Shown piece after piece: positions 29,856 to 38,178 of a stretch of DNA of 64,000 bases (its first letter is position 1; each line of letters starts with the position of its first letter). The notes beneath the pieces are model-generated. The model did no database searches, was not told the DNA's origin, and worked only from the letters and a program-made list of their open reading frames with translations. This DNA is from Myxococcota bacterium (GTDB lineage: Bacteria; Myxococcota_A; UBA796; CAJQPC01): contig JAZAMN010000003.1 in NCBI GenBank assembly GCA_036229005.1, forward strand, positions 32,001 to 96,000, read 5' to 3'. The position numbers and the translations under genes are program-made.

Positions 29856-31169
<1,314 letters not shown>

Positions 31170-31196
31170 CCCACCCCTCGCTCCCCTGAACCCGCG

Positions 31197-33884
31197 TCAG
31201 TGGGCCTCCAGCCACTCAGCAATGGTGGAGCCCATCCAGCCCCCGCTGCCATCGGCCGCTGCCTCCATTCCGGGGCGCAGGCCGGGCCAGTCGGGGGGAT
31301 CCCGCAGGATGGGGTCCCAGTGCTCGCGGCTGTTGTGCTGCAGGATGCCGGAGAGCAGCTTGACGGTGCTGGGGGCCTCGGGGAGGCTCATCAGGGCCTG
31401 CACGCAGTACCGGTGCAGGTAGCCGGGGCGTCCGCGGACCTTGGGCTCCATGCACAGCAGCGCGACGGCGGCCTCCAGGGCTTCGCGGGCCTCGGGGACC
31501 TCGACGAGCAGCATGGCGCAGGCCTCGCGGCCGTGGATCTTGGGGTCGGCCACGGCGTCGATGCGCTCCTGCTGGGACATGGCCTCGGCCTCCAGGCGGT
31601 CGACCCAGCGGGGGGGCTGAACGCCGGCGGCCTCCGCGAGCGCGGCGTCCAGCGTGGGGCAGCGTCCGAAGGCGGCTTCGAGGGCGTCGGGGGAGGGCTG
31701 GAGCGCAAAGAGCTTCATCGCGCGCAGGGCCATGCGGCGGGCGTCCAGATCGGAGCTGTCGTCGTAGCCATAGTGCCTCAGGCAGGCGTCCAGCTCCGGG
31801 GTGGGCTCGCGGCCCTCCAGCAGGGCCAGGCCCAGCTTTGACTGGGGGTAGCGGCTGGCGTAGGGGACGACCCGGCCCAGCTCGGCGCGGTGTGGGGAGC
31901 GCGCGAGGGCCATAAGAGCCATGCCGTTCTCGTTGCCGTCGTTGCGTCCCGCGCTGATCTTGAGGGCCTCACAGACCTCCAGATCCAGGGCCTCCGGGGC
32001 ATAGCTGGCGAGCGCCAGGGCGGCCTCACAGCGCACCTCTCCCAGGCGCAGGCCGCTGACCTTTGCGTAGCGGAGGAGCTGGGTGCGGTCGTCGACCCGG
32101 AGCGCGCCCAGGGCCCGCATCGCCGCGCTCAAGAAAGCCTTGTAGTTCAGGGTGGTGTCGAAGCCGTCGTCTGCGGGGAGCTGGGCGACCAGGGCATTCA
32201 GGGCCGGCCCCGCGGCCTCCACCGAGAGCGCGCCGGCGAGCGTGGGCAGCACCTGGACCTGCCAGGTGTTCAGGGACTCCCTGGGGTCCAGCGGCTCGAT
32301 GCCCGCGACGATGGCCGCGTGTCCGGCCGGGTGGAGCTCCACCGCGCTCAGGGCCAGGATGTCTCGCGCCTTGCGTCCGTCCAGGCCACGCTGTCCCTCG
32401 GGCATGGACGAGCCGTGCAGCGCGATCCCGAGCAGCAGGAGCTGTGTGGCGGTGTTCAACGAGAGCGCCGAGCGCCGGACCATGTCCTCCTCCTCCCGGG
32501 AGTACTGCTCACACTCCCCCTCAATGAGCAGGGAGAGGGACTGCCGCAGCGTTCGGTGTTCGGGGGCACACCACAGCGCCTGCAGGGCCACCTGGTTCAA
32601 CTTGGGGTCCTCAAAGCAAGCGAGGACACGCTGGAGCCTCCCGGTCTCATCCAGCTCGGGCAGCTCGGCGACCAGCTTCTTCCGCTCCAGGCGCTCTCGA
32701 AGCGCCCTGGCCTTGGCCTCGGCCTCTCGCTGCTCGGCCCGCGCGGGGTCCAGATCCAGGGCCCGGAAGCGCGCCAGGGAGGCCGGCCAGTCGTGGTGCT
32801 TGCCCAGGCTCTGGCGGCCCGCCTGCAGCTCGCGGATCAGCTTGATGGCGTCCTGGACGATGCGGCCCGGGTGCTCGGCGGCGGCCTCCATGAAGGGCTC
32901 CAGGTGGGGCTCGTCAAAGAGGTAGGCGCGCCAGATGCTGTAGAGCGCGGTCGGTGTCGCCTTGGTGATCATGTCCAGGCGACCCTGCAGAGCGTCGTCG
33001 GGGACCACCTCGTTGAGGTTCTCGTAGAACACGTCCCCGGCCTCTTCGATGCTCCAGTTGGAGGGGTGGCTGAGCAGGGTGAAGATCCAGCGCGCCCGGT
33101 AGCCAAAGTAGAGCGCCGCGGACTGCCCCGGCTCGGCCTTGAAGGGCTCGAAGTCCTCGTCGTAGTCGTCGATCGAGAAGTGCCAGCTCGGGGCCACCTT
33201 GCCGTGCAGGGCCTCGAACGCGGCGGCCTGGACCTCCTCGGAGAGCTGCTCTTCGCCGGCGGCCTTGCACAGGGCGTTCAGGAACACGCTGTGCTGCAGG
33301 TCCGGGCTGAACACGCCGGCAAAGAAGCCGCGGTTGTGGTCCCAGCGCAGGACCTGGGGCTGGGGGTCCCCCGGGTAGGTGTCCAGGTGGAAGCTGTCGC
33401 CGTCGCCCAGGTCACCCAGGGGCAGGGTGCCCGCGAACACCCCGGCCAGGCCGTTGCCCAGGTAGTTGAGCTGGTCGGCCAGCAGGAGCTGCTCAAAGAG
33501 GTTGATGCCTTCGGGCGGCAGGCGCACCTGGCGGGAGACCAGGCGGAGCTCATCGAAGGTGGAGTAGGGGTTGACCTGGCCCTGGACCGCGCGCTCGAAG
33601 TCGACAAAGCGCTGCGGCGCGGGGATGCCCAGCGTCGGCTCGATGTCGCGGCTGTCACCGGTCCACAGGCCGTGGCTGGCTGCCATGGCCTCGCGCTGCC
33701 ACTGGGGGCCTTCGTGGTGGGCGAAGTCCTCGGCCGAGGCGGTGGGGTAGGGGCCTTGGGGCGGGAGCTGTCCCTCCTCCTCCGGGAGCCCGTTCTGGGC
33801 ACAGACGAAGCGCCGCAGCCGGGAGAGAGGACCGTCCAGGAAGCCCTCGGGGCCGTCCTGGAAGAGGGGGTCGAGCTCAGACAT
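31197..33884 (-). CDS. Large protein with N-terminal SMI1/KNR4 (SUKH)-like domain and helical (HEAT-like) repeats
   Basis: IEPTLGIPAPQRFVDF and LPLGDLGDGDSFHLD...VLRWDH match the SUKH pattern; later AMRALGAL and EAALALA helical motifs; GGAGG RBS. Confidence 0.65.
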   Translation of the reverse strand: MSELDPLFQDGPEGFLDGPLSRLRRFVCAQNGLPEEEGQLPPQGPYPTASAEDFAHHEGPQWQREAMAASHGLWTGDSRDIEPTLGIPAPQRFVDFERAVQGQVNPYSTFDELRLVSRQVRLPPEGINLFEQLLLADQLNYLGNGLAGVFAGTLPLGDLGDGDSFHLDTYPGDPQPQVLRWDHNRGFFAGVFSPDLQHSVFLNALCKAAGEEQLSEEVQAAAFEALHGKVAPSWHFSIDDYDEDFEPFKAEPGQSAALYFGYRARWIFTLLSHPSNWSIEEAGDVFYENLNEVVPDDALQGRLDMITKATPTALYSIWRAYLFDEPHLEPFMEAAAEHPGRIVQDAIKLIRELQAGRQSLGKHHDWPASLARFRALDLDPARAEQREAEAKARALRERLERKKLVAELPELDETGRLQRVLACFEDPKLNQVALQALWCAPEHRTLRQSLSLLIEGECEQYSREEEDMVRRSALSLNTATQLLLLGIALHGSSMPEGQRGLDGRKARDILALSAVELHPAGHAAIVAGIEPLDPRESLNTWQVQVLPTLAGALSVEAAGPALNALVAQLPADDGFDTTLNYKAFLSAAMRALGALRVDDRTQLLRYAKVSGLRLGEVRCEAALALASYAPEALDLEVCEALKISAGRNDGNENGMALMALARSPHRAELGRVVPYASRYPQSKLGLALLEGREPTPELDACLRHYGYDDSSDLDARRMALRAMKLFALQPSPDALEAAFGRCPTLDAALAEAAGVQPPRWVDRLEAEAMSQQERIDAVADPKIHGREACAMLLVEVPEAREALEAAVALLCMEPKVRGRPGYLHRYCVQALMSLPEAPSTVKLLSGILQHNSREHWDPILRDPPDWPGLRPGMEAAADGSGGWMGSTIAEWLEAH

Positions 33885-33971
33885 TGGGTGCCTCCGGGGT
33901 CATGCCCAGAGACTACCGGGGCGTCGGCGCTCGCCTCCAGACAGACGCGCTGAGACGCGCTGAGATGCCGC

Positions 33972-35384
33972 TCAGGGGGTGGGCTGCTCGGCCTCGGGGA
34001 CCTGCTCCCCCTTGATCCCCAGGCGGCTGGCCTCCTCCCGGAGCTCCTCCTTGATCTTGCGGCGGTGGGCGTTCAGGTCCCGCACGGTGGCGATCTCCCC
34101 GCGCTTGTCGTAGTCGGCCCGCACCACCGCCATGCGCTCGTTCACCGCCGCCCGCGCGGCCTCGTTGTAGTCGCGCTGCTGCTCCGCCCACTCCATGAAG
34201 CTCAGTCGCTGCTCGCGCTTGGCCGCCAGGAAGGAGTCCAGCTTCTCGCCGGGGGTCATGGGCGCGATGGCCTCGACGCTCTCCTTCCAGCCGGTCATCT
34301 CGCCCACCGGGACCTCGGAGTCCACGATGGTGCCCTTGGCGGAGGCGACCTCCAGGACGCCCTGCCCCCAGCGCTGGTCGATGCGGAAGTCCAGGTTGCC
34401 CGAGAGCTTGAGGCGCATCTCGTAGACCTGGTCACCGTCGCGGCGGCGCAGCATGTAGCGGCCGGGGGGCAGGGCCAGCACGATCTGCTCGTCGGGGGAC
34501 TTGTGGAGCTCGGCCACGAGCTGCTTCCCGGGGTCGGTGAGCACCAGGATGTGGCCGCCAAAGCCCGGCTTGAGGGTCACCCGCGCGTCGTCGTGGGTCA
34601 GGCGGGTCAGCGGCAGCTCGCCCTGGCCCTTGAGGTGCGTCTCGTAGACCGGGTGCTGGGTGCCCGCCAGGGTCCCGTCGGTGCTGGTGACCGTGCGCTC
34701 GTAGGCGTAGCTGTAGGCCTCGTTCAGGGAGACCACGCCATCGCCGTTGTCGGCCGCGCCGCGCAGCCCGGTGACCAGGTGGTGGGTGAAGAAGCTGCCC
34801 GCCAGCCGGTCGGACTCCTGGGCCCGCTCGCTCGCGGAGGAGGCGGTGATCCACACCTCGCCGGTCGACGACAGCGAGGTCCCCAGGAAGGGGTCCACGA
34901 CCTGCGCGCCCTTGGAGCTGGTGATGGCGCCCGACTGGCAGGCGTCCAGCACGCCCAGGCGCACCTCGGCGTCGATGCGCGTGATGTCCTCGCGCAGGGT
35001 CTCGAAGCGGTAACGGCTCTCCCCAAGCCGCAGCCCAGCCGCGTCGGCGTGCCCCGAATAGTAGAAGAAGAACAGCTCCTCCTCCTCCTGCCCCGAGGCC
35101 GTCGCGAAGGCCTCCAGCCATTGGGACAGCTCGCCCACGGTGGGGGAGTCCAGGACCACCACGTCCTCCGGGTTGAAGCCGCCCAGGTCGATCAGGGTCT
35201 CGGCGACCCGGTGGGCGTCCTTCTCGGCGTACTGCAGGGTCTCCAGGTCCAGTCCACCGTCGTTGTGGCCCACAACCAGGGCGCGCCGCACGACCTCGGC
35301 CTGGGCGTCGGACGCGGCGAAGGCCGACACCGCCAGGGCGCCGACCAGGGTGGAGCGGGAGAGGGCTCGGAGCGCGCGGGACAT
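33972..35384 (-). CDS. Exported caspase-family (peptidase C14) protease
   Basis: Signal peptide; ALVVGHN; FYYSGHAD (His) and LDACQSG (Cys) dyad; SFFTHHLVTGLRGAAD; QHP. Confidence 0.92.
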   Translation of the reverse strand: MSRALRALSRSTLVGALAVSAFAASDAQAEVVRRALVVGHNDGGLDLETLQYAEKDAHRVAETLIDLGGFNPEDVVVLDSPTVGELSQWLEAFATASGQEEEELFFFYYSGHADAAGLRLGESRYRFETLREDITRIDAEVRLGVLDACQSGAITSSKGAQVVDPFLGTSLSSTGEVWITASSASERAQESDRLAGSFFTHHLVTGLRGAADNGDGVVSLNEAYSYAYERTVTSTDGTLAGTQHPVYETHLKGQGELPLTRLTHDDARVTLKPGFGGHILVLTDPGKQLVAELHKSPDEQIVLALPPGRYMLRRRDGDQVYEMRLKLSGNLDFRIDQRWGQGVLEVASAKGTIVDSEVPVGEMTGWKESVEAIAPMTPGEKLDSFLAAKREQRLSFMEWAEQQRDYNEAARAAVNERMAVVRADYDKRGEIATVRDLNAHRRKIKEELREEASRLGIKGEQVPEAEQPTP

Positions 35385-35387
35385 CAG

Positions 35388-36110
35388 CTACTCCTTCTCA
35401 AAGTGCAGGGTGCGCAGGACCCCACCGTCCGGGACATCGTGCTTCAAGATTGCCTGACGGATCTGGGCCTCGCTGGGCTGCTCGCGGGTGAACAGGGCGT
35501 AGAAACGCTGCTCCCCCGGCGTTCCATCCATCTGCAGGGCAAAGGGGGCCTGCAGGATCTGCAGCTCGGAGTCGGCCTTGATGGTGCCGTAGAGCTCCAC
35601 GACCCCGTGCCCGTCCACTCCGCCAAAGCTCACGTAGGGCCGCTCCATCGTCGAGAACTTGAGCTGCAGCACGTCCCCGGCGTGGAGCACGTCGTCCGTG
35701 TCCAACAGCACCGGGCCCTCGCGGGTGTCCAGCCAGGCCTCCAGCAGGATGTGCTCGCCCTTGGAGCGGGTCTGCGCGTAGGGGTTGTCCGAGGCAGGCT
35801 CCTTCGGGGAGAGGAGCAGCGGGAAGGCCACCAGCACTGCTGCAGCCACCGCCATCAACACCCAGCGCCAGGCACTGTTGTCATTGGCTGGCATCGGCGA
35901 GGTGCGGCTGCCCGGCTCCCGCTCGGCGGCGCGGCGGATCGCCTCTGGGACGGGCTCAAGCACGAAGGCGTTGCGGTTGGCCTCCTGGGCGCCCAGGCGG
36001 CCCGCGCAGCGCTCACAGTCCTGGATGTGGGCCCGGGCCTGGGCCTCCGCGGCGGGGTCCAGCTCGCCGTAGCGGAGCTGGTTCAGCATCAGGGTGGAGA
36101 GGTGGGACAT
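35388..36110 (-). CDS. Zinc-finger transmembrane anti-sigma factor with C-terminal DUF4384-like domain
   Basis: HIQDCERC (HxxxCxxC); TM WVLMAVAAAVLVAFPLLL; TRSKG then AGDVLQL...DGHG. Confidence 0.85.
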   Translation of the reverse strand: MSHLSTLMLNQLRYGELDPAAEAQARAHIQDCERCAGRLGAQEANRNAFVLEPVPEAIRRAAEREPGSRTSPMPANDNSAWRWVLMAVAAAVLVAFPLLLSPKEPASDNPYAQTRSKGEHILLEAWLDTREGPVLLDTDDVLHAGDVLQLKFSTMERPYVSFGGVDGHGVVELYGTIKADSELQILQAPFALQMDGTPGEQRFYALFTREQPSEAQIRQAILKHDVPDGGVLRTLHFEKE

Positions 36111-36120
36111 GGTCTGGTCC

Positions 36121-36687
36121 TCAGAGGGCGTTGAGCTCTTGGAGCCACGGGGGAGGGTTCGTCTCGAGCTGGGCCTTGAACTTGGCCACGCGCTTGCGGA
36201 TGGCGGCGGCGCTCAGGCCCAGCAGATCGCCGATCTCGGCGTAGGTCATGCCGTCGACGTAGTGGTACAGCACGCAGTCCTGGGTGCCCTCGTCCGCCTC
36301 GTCCAGCAGACGGGCCACGAGATCGCGCAGGTCCGCGCCGGTGAGAAAGGTGTCTTCGACCGGGACCACGGCCTCCTCTTCCTGGAGGTCCTCGCGGCGC
36401 CGGCCGCGGGAGCGCAGGCGGTTCAGGCAGGTCGTCGTGGTGACCTTGAACAGCCAGGTGCTGGGCCGGGACTCACCCCGGAAGCTGTCGCGGTAGCGGT
36501 GGGCCTTCAAGAAGACCTCCTGGCAGACATCCTGGGCGTCGGCCTCGTTGCGCAGCAGGCTGCGGCAGCGGCCCAGGACCATGTCGCCATAGGCGCGGTA
36601 GAGAGCCTCGACATCGAGTTCCACGGAGGTGCCCGCCTTGCTTTGAGCGTTGCTCTGGCGCTGGGCCCTAACCCGGGGAGAGGCCAC
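36121..36687 (-). CDS. ECF RNA polymerase sigma-70 factor (start uncertain: 36687, 36624 or 36726)
   Basis: DAQDVCQEVF, STWLFKVTTTTCLN, DGMTYAEIGDLLGLS; GGGGAGG before GTG 36687. Confidence 0.93.
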   Translation of the reverse strand: MASPRVRAQRQSNAQSKAGTSVELDVEALYRAYGDMVLGRCRSLLRNEADAQDVCQEVFLKAHRYRDSFRGESRPSTWLFKVTTTTCLNRLRSRGRRREDLQEEEAVVPVEDTFLTGADLRDLVARLLDEADEGTQDCVLYHYVDGMTYAEIGDLLGLSAAAIRKRVAKFKAQLETNPPPWLQELNAL

Positions 36688-36746
36688 GGCGGCCTCCCCC
36701 TGGGCGGAGGGATGTCCTGGGGACATCGGGATGGCGGCGCTGCGGC

Positions 36747-37235
36747 TCACTCGCACTCGCCGGAGTCGTCGCTGCCCCAGTCCGTGCCGCTGTGGCCGGA
36801 CCCGACGGGGTAGATGGTGAAGGCACCCGGCAGCAGCTCGGCGTCACCGTCGGCGAACTCCAGGATGGCGTCGACCTCACCGAGCTCGGCGTCCTCGTCC
36901 ACCGACAGGATCGTGGTGATCTGGCCGTCCTCGACGACCTGGGCCATCACCTCGACGTCGCCGTAGAACACCATCGTGGCCTCGCTCAGGTCGAGCTCGC
37001 CGCTCTCCAGGCTGAGGATCCCGGCAAAGGTCTCGCCCTGCTCTGCGTGGCCGGGAACGAACTTGAGGACCGCAGGCTCAGCCTCCTCGCCGTCCTCGTC
37101 CACCGCGGTGTCGTCGTCCCACTCGTCCAGCTCGCAGCCCCACTCGTCGTCCGAGCAATCGCCGTCGTAGTAGATGCAGCCAGAGGTGATGGACAGGAAT
37201 CCCAGCAGGGGGAGGGCGCTCAGGTACTTGCTCAT
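36747..37235 (-). CDS. Acidic lipoprotein heading the ECF sigma operon
   Basis: Lipobox TSGC; GAGGAG RBS; acidic N-region followed by beta-rich domain. Confidence 0.8.
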   Translation of the reverse strand: MSKYLSALPLLGFLSITSGCIYYDGDCSDDEWGCELDEWDDDTAVDEDGEEAEPAVLKFVPGHAEQGETFAGILSLESGELDLSEATMVFYGDVEVMAQVVEDGQITTILSVDEDAELGEVDAILEFADGDAELLPGAFTIYPVGSGHSGTDWGSDDSGECE

Positions 37236-37288
37236 GGGGGTGTCTCCTCGAATGTCGACCGCGACGGTTGTTGTCGGTCGGCTCTATG

Positions 37289-37315
37289 GACACCGCCTCT
37301 GGCTCTGGGCGTTAC
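37289..37315 (-). promoter_or_regulatory. Candidate ECF promoter GTAAC-N17-GTGTC for the sigma/anti-sigma/caspase operon
   Basis: Minus strand CGGTAAC gcccagagccagaggcg GTGTCC, about 55 nt upstream of the lipoprotein ATG; AAC -35 core typical of ECF promoters. Confidence 0.4.
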
Positions 37316-37362
37316 CGCTGGATCGGAATAAGGGATCAGCGCTTGTAACAAAGAAGAAACGA

Positions 37363-38178
37363 ATGCCTGAAAAAGCTTATAAGAACCTGGATTTTCTCAA
37401 CTCGCCCGCCGCTCGACTCATCCGGATCCAGTGTGAGTACAGCGAGCCGCAGGCCCGCTTCCGCCGCATGGGCGTCGAAGACACCATCGTGATGTACGGC
37501 TCGGCACGCACGCTGCCGGGCAACGTGGCTCAGCTTCGCCTGCAACACGCCAAGGAGGCCCTGGCCAAGGCCAAGGGCAAGGAGGAGAAGGCCAAGCTCG
37601 AGGCCGAGCTCAAGGTGGCCGAGGGCAAGCTCGCCAACTCCCGCTACTACGACGAGACCCGCGAGCTGGCCCGCCGCCTGACCCGCTGGGGCATGACCCG
37701 CCCCGGTGGCCGCGAGTACCTGATCTGCACGGGCGGTGGCCCCGGCATCATGGAGGCCGGAAACCGCGGCGCCGCCGATGTCGAGGGGGGCCGCAGCGTC
37801 GGCCTGGGCATCAGCCTGCCCTTCGAGGAGCGCCTGAACCAGTACGTCTCCAAGGACCTGGGCTTCGTGTTCCACTACTTCTTCATGCGGAAGTACTGGT
37901 TCATGTACCTGGCCAAGGCCATGGTGGTGCTGCCCGGCGGCTTCGGCACGCTGGACGAGCTCTTCGAGCTGCTGACCCTGCGCCAGACCGGAAAGGTCCG
38001 CAAGCAGCTCCCGATCGTGCTCTTCGGCAAGGCCTACTGGGAGAAGGTGCTCAACCTGCAGGCCATGGTGGACTACGGCACCATCGCGCCGGATGACCTG
38101 GACATGTTCTTCACCACGGACTCCGTGGACGAAGCCTACGAGTTCCTGACCGTCCAGCTCCGCAAGGTCTGGGGTTAG
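37363..38178 (+). CDS. LOG-family nucleotide phosphoribohydrolase (TIGR00730-like)
   Basis: YGSAR, TGGGPGIMEAGNRGA, FHYFFMRK, PGGFGTLDE. Confidence 0.93.
   Translation: MPEKAYKNLDFLNSPAARLIRIQCEYSEPQARFRRMGVEDTIVMYGSARTLPGNVAQLRLQHAKEALAKAKGKEEKAKLEAELKVAEGKLANSRYYDETRELARRLTRWGMTRPGGREYLICTGGGPGIMEAGNRGAADVEGGRSVGLGISLPFEERLNQYVSKDLGFVFHYFFMRKYWFMYLAKAMVVLPGGFGTLDELFELLTLRQTGKVRKQLPIVLFGKAYWEKVLNLQAMVDYGTIAPDDLDMFFTTDSVDEAYEFLTVQLRKVWG

Follow-up and report, generated by a model that had tools for sequence, protein, structure and literature searches.

The stretch of DNA analysed here, called the window below, comprises 64,000 nucleotides (nt) of a Myxococcota bacterium (assembly GCA_036229005.1, contig JAZAMN010000003.1, positions 32,001 to 96,000 of the forward strand), and its minus strand carries adjacent genes for a lipoprotein, a sigma factor of the extracytoplasmic function (ECF) type, a predicted anti-sigma factor and a likely exported C14 protease. 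Judging from residue conservation, this caspase-fold protease is probably an Arg/Lys-specific site-1 enzyme that would cleave the anti-sigma factor encoded beside it at a Lys-Gly bond and free the sigma factor, the whole forming an envelope switch. An earlier note on this DNA had described five co-oriented open reading frames (ORFs) between 31197 and 37315, with gaps of 10 nt from sigma to anti-sigma gene and 3 nt from anti-sigma to protease gene, and had pointed out the motifs SGH (H112), DAC (C149), TRSKG (K117-G118), ITSSKG (K158-G159) and VASAKG (K350-G351). All of these are present as described; the gap from the protease gene to the fifth ORF is 87 nt. The features are as follows.

37287-37316, minus strand: likely ECF promoter GGTAACG-N15-GGTGTCCA, with the -35 element at 37310-37316 and the -10 element at 37287-37294.
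36747-37235, minus strand: acidic lipoprotein with lipobox Cys20 and a likely IPT/TIG-like Ig fold; accessory, in the nearest clade.
36121-36756, minus strand: ECF sigma factor (Sigma70_r2 7e-18, Sigma70_r4_2 1.2e-8, TIGR02937 2.9e-25).
35388-36110, minus strand: predicted anti-sigma factor of 240 amino acids (aa), with HxxxCxxC, one transmembrane helix, a linker and a DUF4384-like extracytoplasmic domain.
36003-36026, minus strand: HxxxCxxC of the anti-sigma factor (weak zf-HC2 match, E 5e-4, under its cut-off).
35808-35864, minus strand: transmembrane helix of the anti-sigma factor (residues 83-101, hydropathy 2.43).
35757-35762, minus strand: K117-G118 of the anti-sigma factor (QTRSK↓GE), predicted site-1 cut from [KR]G conservation.
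33972-35384, minus strand: C14B-type protease (Peptidase_C14 PF00656, E 4.6e-14, 53.1 bits against a cut-off of 21.4).
34938-35051, minus strand: catalytic dyad H112 (35049-35051) and C149 (34938-34940), with D147; invariant in 66/66.
35217-35219 and 34815-34817, minus strand: D56 and E190, candidate acidic S1 residues; invariant in 66/66.
34908-34913, minus strand: K158-G159 in the loop at Cys+9, predicted from [KR]G conservation to be auto-inhibitory or a site of self-processing.
34332-34337, minus strand: K350-G351 in the linker, bordering the swappable C-terminal module; predicted release site from [KR]G conservation.
33975-34331, minus strand: 119-aa tail, likely helical from its sequence, in place of the family barrel; in 4/182 genomes, all of one genus.
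34008-34013, minus strand: tail K458-G459; K-G-E invariant in 4/4 at 69-75% identity.
31197-33884, minus strand: 895-aa ORF with an SMI1/KNR4(SUKH)-like N-terminal region; an adjacent orphan outside the module.

Gene content and order indicate that the lipoprotein, the ECF sigma factor, the zinc-finger/transmembrane/DUF4384-like anti-sigma factor and the signal-peptide C14 protease form a conserved cassette. The sigma factor, whose true start may sit downstream of the GTG at 36756, has Sigma2 and Sigma4 regions only, and the next gene combines HxxxCxxC, one transmembrane helix and an extracytoplasmic domain, the layout of ZAS-type pairs. We compared 64 neighbourhoods, mostly chosen from 150 listed protease matches and holding 65 proteases (L001 and L057 were excluded as duplicates of L042 and L002). 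The sigma gene is present in 59/64 of these loci, with three of the five misses at contig ends, and an anti-sigma gene directly upstream was picked for 58/65 proteases. Relatives of the protease occur in 145/182 genomes of the host's class. To guard against circularity, a model of the anti-sigma outer domain was built with the motif left out (A3), and 40 out-of-class loci were picked among its matches listed. An intact protease lies at the locus of 39/40 of these anti-sigma factors, which were found without reference to the protease (38 adjacent, one divergent), and the remaining one has a broken protease remnant alongside. The A3 model matches 155/401 genomes of the phylum, and the homologues of the domain amount to 4,748 clusters at 50% identity (E up to 1e-10). 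The DUF4384 profile itself matches 14/55 aligned anti-sigma factors (best 2.9e-5; window copy 0.041), a search of the host genome, G000, with PF14326 gave nothing at E 0.001, and the zinc motif is lost in many relatives.

The Lys-Gly site of the anti-sigma factor is the feature on which the predicted cut depends. K117-G118 is the sole [KR]G in the window anti-sigma factor and lies 16 residues outside the membrane. A [KR]-G is kept in 58/59 anti-sigma factors (52 KG, 6 RG and 1 KS) within a flanking linker that is unalignable, and it precedes the outer domain in 40/40 out-of-class anti-sigma factors found with the motif-free model. Likewise, 142/147 scored representatives from a 50%-identity library, also retrieved with the motif-free model, have [KR]-G within 18 residues before the domain; control windows gave 8/139, 13/136, 22/147 and 23/147 (6-16%). 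The P4-P1' profile of the anti-sigma site (T38 R81 x K95 G100, in %) coincides with that of the protease loop (T93 R89 x K100 G100, in %): the two proteins are non-homologous, yet one profile, T-R-x-K-G, is common to both. The earlier note had made its cleavage proposal depend on conservation of xxKG among homologues, and all three [KR]-G sites are indeed kept. Linker length and the spacing from motif to domain vary, and one 758-aa anti-sigma-like protein (P0149), with a duplicated N-terminal domain, a transmembrane segment and four DUF4384-like repeats, has no [KR]G before the repeats; therefore the [KR]G behaves as a linear motif. The idea that it is a structural part of DUF4384 is disfavoured by the same two observations.

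These data also bear on whether the protease is merely an output of the sigma factor, engaged in envelope remodelling or processing, with the anti-sigma [KR]-G being structural or the target of some unrelated trypsin-like protease. It is common for ECF operons to include genes that the sigma factor controls, and the protease does lie under a conserved promoter. Additionally, the anti-sigma motif can persist beside a broken protease gene: at L141 (G418 C1, ~3916800-3917900), an anti-sigma factor with intact RLKG adjoins a decayed protease fragment. However, that genome encodes another family protease elsewhere, the domain fold does not need the motif (P0149), the anti-sigma motif matches the protease loop and shifts between K and R along with it between clades, and the lipoprotein varies while anti-sigma and protease genes stay adjacent. 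We consider this explanation improbable.

The protease is likely exported and likely has an acidic S1 pocket for Arg or Lys at P1, formed by D56, D147 and E190. It consists of a predicted signal peptide (residues 1-29), a caspase fold (~30-263), a beta-sandwich (~265-340), the [KR]G linker and a genus-specific tail. The signal peptide, recognised by sequence pattern, has a basic N-region, a weak hydrophobic stretch and A-Q-A before the first conserved strand, and is similar in homologues. C149 is the only Cys of the window protease. D56 and D147 align with metacaspase Asp positions, D56 being the "CIND" Asp, and E190 would by its position be equivalent to MALT1 E500. In MALT1, according to the sections of the paper available to us, the P1 Arg is bound by an Asp of alpha1, an Asp of L4 and a Glu of L5 (PMC4357240). 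The AlphaFold model (pLDDT, the predicted local distance difference test, 90.3) shows the caspase fold followed by the beta-sandwich; its nearest Foldseek match is MALT1 caspase-Ig3 (E 6.4e-10), and VIA matches include AtMC4, caspases and MALT1 (Z 20.6-22.8; AtMC4 with Z 22.8, root-mean-square deviation (rmsd) 2.4 and 206 aligned residues). A phmmer search of the protease against the PDB gave nothing under E 0.25. The 89-aa domain of a Ser/Thr kinase (PDB 9k1u_D) is a weak match to the beta-sandwich (E 0.068), hinting at a PEGA-like module. D212, D215 and E222 are near-invariant (window 34719-34751); compared with out-of-class relatives, some members of the nearest clade have this loop shortened by one residue; we take this set to be EF-hand-like, a possible Ca2+ site or point of control.

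The two further [KR]-G sites lie in the protease itself. The loop K158-G159 is present in 66/66 proteases, in 38/38 out-of-class ones and in 119/120 library proteases, and the linker [KR]-G at 350-351 in 66/66 and in 114/114 anchored library proteases (6/120 were unanchored), with the reservation that the 120 library proteases were retrieved with a profile containing their own motifs. The linker profile is looser, (A/T)xx[K68/R32]G. In the model, residues 162-169 fall below pLDDT 50 and the region around K350 is also of low pLDDT; low confidence after G159 and around K350 is as expected for exposed linkers. Each of the three [KR]-G sites marks a domain border.

The same conservation data would be compatible with binding to the S1 pocket, the motif acting for docking or as a pseudo-substrate: the linker would sit in the protease active site, both partners would be inactivated, and a signal would dissociate the pair and leave the anti-sigma factor open to attack by a housekeeping site-1 protease. 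In clan CD enzymes, an Arg of the pro-domain occupies S1 (PMC4357240), and PCi inhibits PCaspase and is also cut (10.1101/2023.06.23.546230), as far as the available parts of these sources go. Against docking stand the invariant dyad and the position of all three sites at domain borders. A near-invariant small P1' residue, a flexible linker and a domain boundary have the look of a scissile bond, and we regard docking as unlikely. A small P1' residue is also attributed to MALT1 sites, although the search made for it did not show this. Co-folding of the protease (A1) with the outer part of the anti-sigma factor (A2) scored 0.01 against a mark of 0.32, a result that weighs neither for nor against binding.

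The module after the linker motif is variable and, in most relatives, would anchor the enzyme. A regular-expression sort of 65 modules gave DUF5683-like helices plus a barrel in 36, beta-helix-type repeats in 15, MORN in 4, other modules in 9 and the window-type tail in 1. The module of a congener folds as helices plus eight strands and matches OprF/OmpA (E 1.2e-5); an eight-stranded barrel places the N-terminal enzyme in the periplasm. The window-type tail is confined to one genus, in which a further copy of barrel type follows directly downstream in G004 and G006 but not in G000 or G005. Therefore, the window copy is a derived barrel-less variant that arose by duplication within the genus. 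Since a short tail replaces the barrel in the host genus, the enzyme encoded here would be soluble in the periplasm, and its control would fall to the tail, to the lipoprotein or to a barrel-bearing paralogue in trans. Three short near-tandem copies (gacgcgctga-like) lie at 33935-33970, just past the protease stop, at the junction of a variable slot.

The host genome has two further sigma/anti-sigma/protease triplets, at C74:35886-38913 (L195) and C46:20051-23077 (L006), and both of their proteases end in barrel-like C-termini. The C74 protease is of the R-G type and the C46 protease of the K-G type; the latter could act in trans on the window cassette. The same genome encodes a caspase-fold protein at C6:133044-134213 on the plus strand, in which Asp-Ala-Ser replaces Asp-Ala-Cys, likely an inactive homologue. 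In a rearranged cassette (L161/L192; G349 C12:1463500-1467600), the protease gene is divergent from the sigma gene and a stand-alone beta-helix/barrel-like gene follows the anti-sigma gene.

A likely ECF promoter lies 51 nt before the lipoprotein ATG, and the cassette sigma factor presumably recognises it. The family motif GGT(A/G)(A/G)C(G/A)-N15-GGTGTC scored at least 12 in 43/60 operon-leading regions, always with spacer 15, under a matrix trained on the same 60 regions, compared with 0/60 in each of three shuffles. GGTGTC alone occurs in 42/60 regions, whereas shuffled sequences gave 6.8 on average and 14 at most, and 25/36 untrained out-of-class loci scored at least 12. The earlier note had proposed GTAAC-N17-GTGTC, which is found at 37287-37316; the promoter is conserved with fixed spacing, but the strict pattern holds in 6/60 regions and the wider motif is the better description. 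The window site is the best-scoring one in G000. A divergent LOG/SLOG-family gene (PF03641; window 37174-38178) is syntenic in congeners, and the ECF promoter lies in the intergenic region common to both directions.

Two other sites in the host genome precede candidate targets. The second-best site stands before a run of exported genes at C54:37791-41514 (L263), coding for two barrel-like proteins, the first of them large, with a CxxCH cytochrome-c-like lipoprotein between them and a repeat lipoprotein after them; it is kept in 3/3 congeners and in 0/8 more distant matches. A small exported barrel-like gene at C16:75807-76415 (L264) also lies behind an ECF motif, which is present in 11/17 homologues, mostly as the GGTGAC variant, while G000 has GGTAGCG, possibly reflecting a hand-over between paralogous sigma factors. 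Coding controls for both sites scored at most 5.2. These genes have no Pfam match and their barrels are read from sequence pattern only; paralogous sigma factors could share both sites.

Taken in order, the preferred reading of a site-1 protease would run as follows. First, the loop motif K158-G159 would keep the resting protease inactive, helped in most relatives by an outer-membrane tether. Second, on a signal the protease would cleave itself in the loop and at K350-G351 of the linker, so that the catalytic unit parts from the C-terminal module. The freed enzyme would then cut the anti-sigma factor at K117-G118, shedding the DUF4384-like domain, and RseP and cytoplasmic proteases would complete its degradation. 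Finally, the sigma factor would transcribe its own operon and a few outer-membrane-type genes, giving positive feedback. The likeliest class of activating signal is envelope or outer-membrane-protein status. An RseP gene is present in the host genome, and truncated DdvA is reported to be an RseP substrate in Myxococcus xanthus (PMC11506125). The caspase homologue MaOC1 requires self-processing (PMC5756287); its cut site was not found in PMC7935541.

The motifs differ between clades in ways that partly follow the partner protein. Among members of the paralogous C74-type clade, R-G is found at the loop in 28/30 (K in 2) and at the anti-sigma site in 27/30 (K in 3), and the P3 Arg is lost in both. 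The two K-loop proteases of this clade, both from one genus, adjoin K-type anti-sigma factors. Strict K/R co-evolution, considered as a general rule, is only partly supported.

Several observations weigh against the cleavage mechanism or limit its reach, beyond the retrieval of the library proteases noted above. The K/R concordance is imperfect (K/K 47, R/R 38, R/K 10 and K/R 2, in an automatic tally with some wrong picks that took in 133 of ~175 fetched proteases; L070, L074 and L206 were mis-picked and are actually K), and on the tree a single deep split accounts for most of it, with one or two small reversions besides. The loop [KR]-G is missing from a third subclade (26/133 family rows), whose anti-sigma factors mostly keep theirs, five reading K-S or K-A. 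In C74-type proteases, the stretch from beta-sandwich to barrel holds no conserved [KR]G (21 linkers); therefore the first and second steps of the mechanism are not universal. An enzyme that never leaves its tether would need to get at a site adjoining the inner membrane. Across the genome, promoter sites are only slightly in excess (8 sites scoring at least 20 versus 0-6 at wrong spacers), and the regulon is therefore small. The window copy lacks the family anchor or sensor and G000 has no tandem barrel copy, so the window cassette could be a partly relict variant. With loop and linker motifs lost in distant clades, the anti-sigma site is thus the most constant of the three, and the self-processing sites are clade-specific.

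This pattern is also what a mislocalisation sensor would leave, in which the protease cuts the anti-sigma factor but control is spatial: the barrel would sequester the enzyme in the outer membrane until barrel assembly or the cell wall fails, self-cleavage would be incidental, and the lipoprotein would tether the barrel-less copy. Such spatial logic resembles that of RcsF. The OmpA/OprF-like eight-stranded barrel of the congener's copy, the retention of the anti-sigma motif in clades without loop or linker motifs, and the resemblance of the candidate regulon genes to outer-membrane barrels all fit. However, the clade of the window copy keeps both loop and linker motifs without exception, and MORN-tailed and helical-tailed members have no barrel, and we think such a sensor rather unlikely.

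A wider proposal is put forward tentatively, and we hold it to be possible but doubtful. The cassettes may represent a phylum-wide class of trans-envelope signalling in which one code, T-R-x-[K/R]↓G, is used three times: in the loop, in the anti-sigma factor and in the linker to an exchangeable outer-membrane sensor module (barrel, beta-helix, MORN or, in the window copy, a short tail). A single event of activation would then suffice to unlock the enzyme, detach it from its tether and sever the anti-sigma factor. Paralogues would be partly insulated by K- and R-codes, and the class would be a non-immune periplasmic counterpart, possibly the source, of CRISPR caspase/anti-sigma modules.

The lipoprotein is a member of the cassette in the nearest clade and is not a general sensor. 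It occurs in 37/64 loci, all within the 41 nearest (upstream in 33 and downstream in 4), and in 0/40 out-of-class loci; the earlier note had cast it as sensor or output, and on these counts the lipoprotein as a universal sensor was rejected. C20 is invariant in 38/38 and C161 is present in 34/38 of its sequences, whose alignment holds no conserved [KR]G. ESM Atlas gives a TIG lead (0.82-0.84, TM-score ~0.5).

The 895-aa ORF, which the earlier note had tentatively added to the module as a SUKH protein, does not belong to it. The gene has a match in 0/60 relatives, is never found in the 64 neighbourhoods, and its slot holds other genes in the congeners G005 and G006, so it was rejected as a member. 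It is likely an immunity-type orphan, and the SMI1/KNR4 assignment is a lead only: the ESM Atlas cosine of 0.89 and TM-by-target of 0.62-0.67 are below the naming bar, the SUKH profile gave no Pfam match for the ORF or 8 homologues, and NCBIfam gave none for the ORF. The family scans (Pfam, NCBIfam) returned no match for the lipoprotein or this ORF. Distant homologues of the ORF are fused to SUFU, BNR and TPR domains, as in poly-immunity proteins. Neither a sigma-70 promoter nor a minus-strand terminator was found in 31000-37500, and transcription may therefore read through into this gene.

A SUKH-like neighbour might suggest a module for phage defence or programmed death, akin to SAVED-CHAT/PCaspase or Craspase, with that gene as the immunity partner. 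Caspase-fold proteases beside sigma factors act so in Haliangium and in type III-E systems, and DdvS controls a defence island, according to the published sections covered. Against this, the locus lies among housekeeping-type genes in conserved synteny (a scan aimed at defence systems was not made), genomes carry up to several paralogues, the candidate targets are of envelope type and the SUKH-like gene is an orphan. A defence role is highly improbable here, and a family scan gave no CHAT match in the five locus proteins; the envelope switch remains the preferred reading.

Most bacterial caspase homologues have no known substrate, and the cassette offers a prediction at residue level (K117-G118), a predicted promoter for a reporter and look-alike operons in the tractable M. 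xanthus. The barrel-less window copy would be the easiest family member to purify. If the preferred reading is true, clan CD cysteine proteases would join the site-1 enzymes of ECF signalling, the large myxobacterial caspase family would gain a non-death role, and the unproven self-cleavage model of DdvA would gain a tested precedent.

The gene order has been known since 2012, and what is added here is the residue-level cut-site prediction, the promoter and the barrel-less variant. Asplund-Samuelsson et al. 2012 (PMC3501461) reported, in the sections available, sigma-metacaspase operons for 4/5 metacaspases of M. xanthus DK1622 and such operons in Anaeromyxobacter, Haliangium, Sorangium, Ralstonia and Fibrobacter. 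The M. xanthus operons are like the cassette by gene order alone: an ECF sigma gene, a hypothetical gene (MXAN_4950, 6682, 7215 and 7455; a transmembrane segment in two) and a metacaspase gene, with a lipoprotein in 2/4. In the sections covered, that paper gives co-occurrence only, with no anti-sigma call, motif, promoter, barrel or mechanism. A literature search for six of the M. xanthus locus tags yielded a passing mention, and in the literature searched we found no functional study of the cassette or mention of the common motif (subscription papers and preprint supplements were mostly outside reach). In the classification of Casas-Pastor 2021, the text on ECF25 mentions zinc-binding/DUF4384 anti-sigma factors, and ECF216 is a group of Myxococcales; the word "caspase" was not found in the part of the supplement searched. 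For ECF54 and EACC2 systems, the tie between caspase-family domains and ECF sigma factors is one of context only, in the portions consulted.

Among characterised systems, DdvA/DdvS of M. xanthus is similar in having a zinc-binding single-pass anti-sigma factor, an ECF partner and, in the periplasm, a His-Cys domain of the caspase family; the proposal there is that this domain cleaves the juxtamembrane linker ahead of RseP (PMC11506125). In DdvA, however, a CHAT (TPR-CHAT) domain with an incomplete site is fused into the anti-sigma factor, and the system controls a CRISPR/CBASS island. In the cassette, the C14 protease is a protein of its own, its acidic pocket is complete and it shares a recognition motif with the anti-sigma factor; the cassette is thus not of the DdvA type. 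In the Craspase system Csx29-Csx30-CASP-sigma (PMC10028731; 10.1101/2022.08.17.504292), a caspase-fold protease likewise cuts an anti-sigma factor and sheds its C-terminal domain, and one group of Csx30 C-terminal domains is DUF4384; this TPR-CHAT protease is cytoplasmic and RNA-triggered and cuts after Met, and the system lacks both a signal peptide and a membrane-spanning segment. SAVED-CHAT/PCaspase/PCc-sigma/PCi of Haliangium (10.1101/2023.06.23.546230) also involves a cleavage-activated myxobacterial C14 protease encoded with a sigma factor, but it is cA3-triggered and of broad specificity, cuts the sigma factor itself, causes abortive infection and has no transmembrane anti-sigma factor. 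The MALT1 paracaspase and type II metacaspases share the caspase fold followed by a beta-sandwich, the Asp/Asp/Glu S1 pocket and a basic P1 (PMC4357240), and type II metacaspases self-process at a basic loop residue; they differ in being eukaryotic and cytosolic, at 12-19% identity and with another domain orientation (Foldseek rmsd ~14). DegS/RseP/RseA is alike in its two-step proteolysis of a single-pass anti-sigma factor. In cell-surface signalling of the FecA/FecR/FecI type, a signal crosses the envelope through a TonB-dependent transducer. Unlike both, the cassette would employ as its site-1 enzyme a dedicated, co-encoded clan CD cysteine protease, normally carried on an eight-stranded barrel, rather than an HtrA/Prc serine protease or a TonB-dependent transducer.

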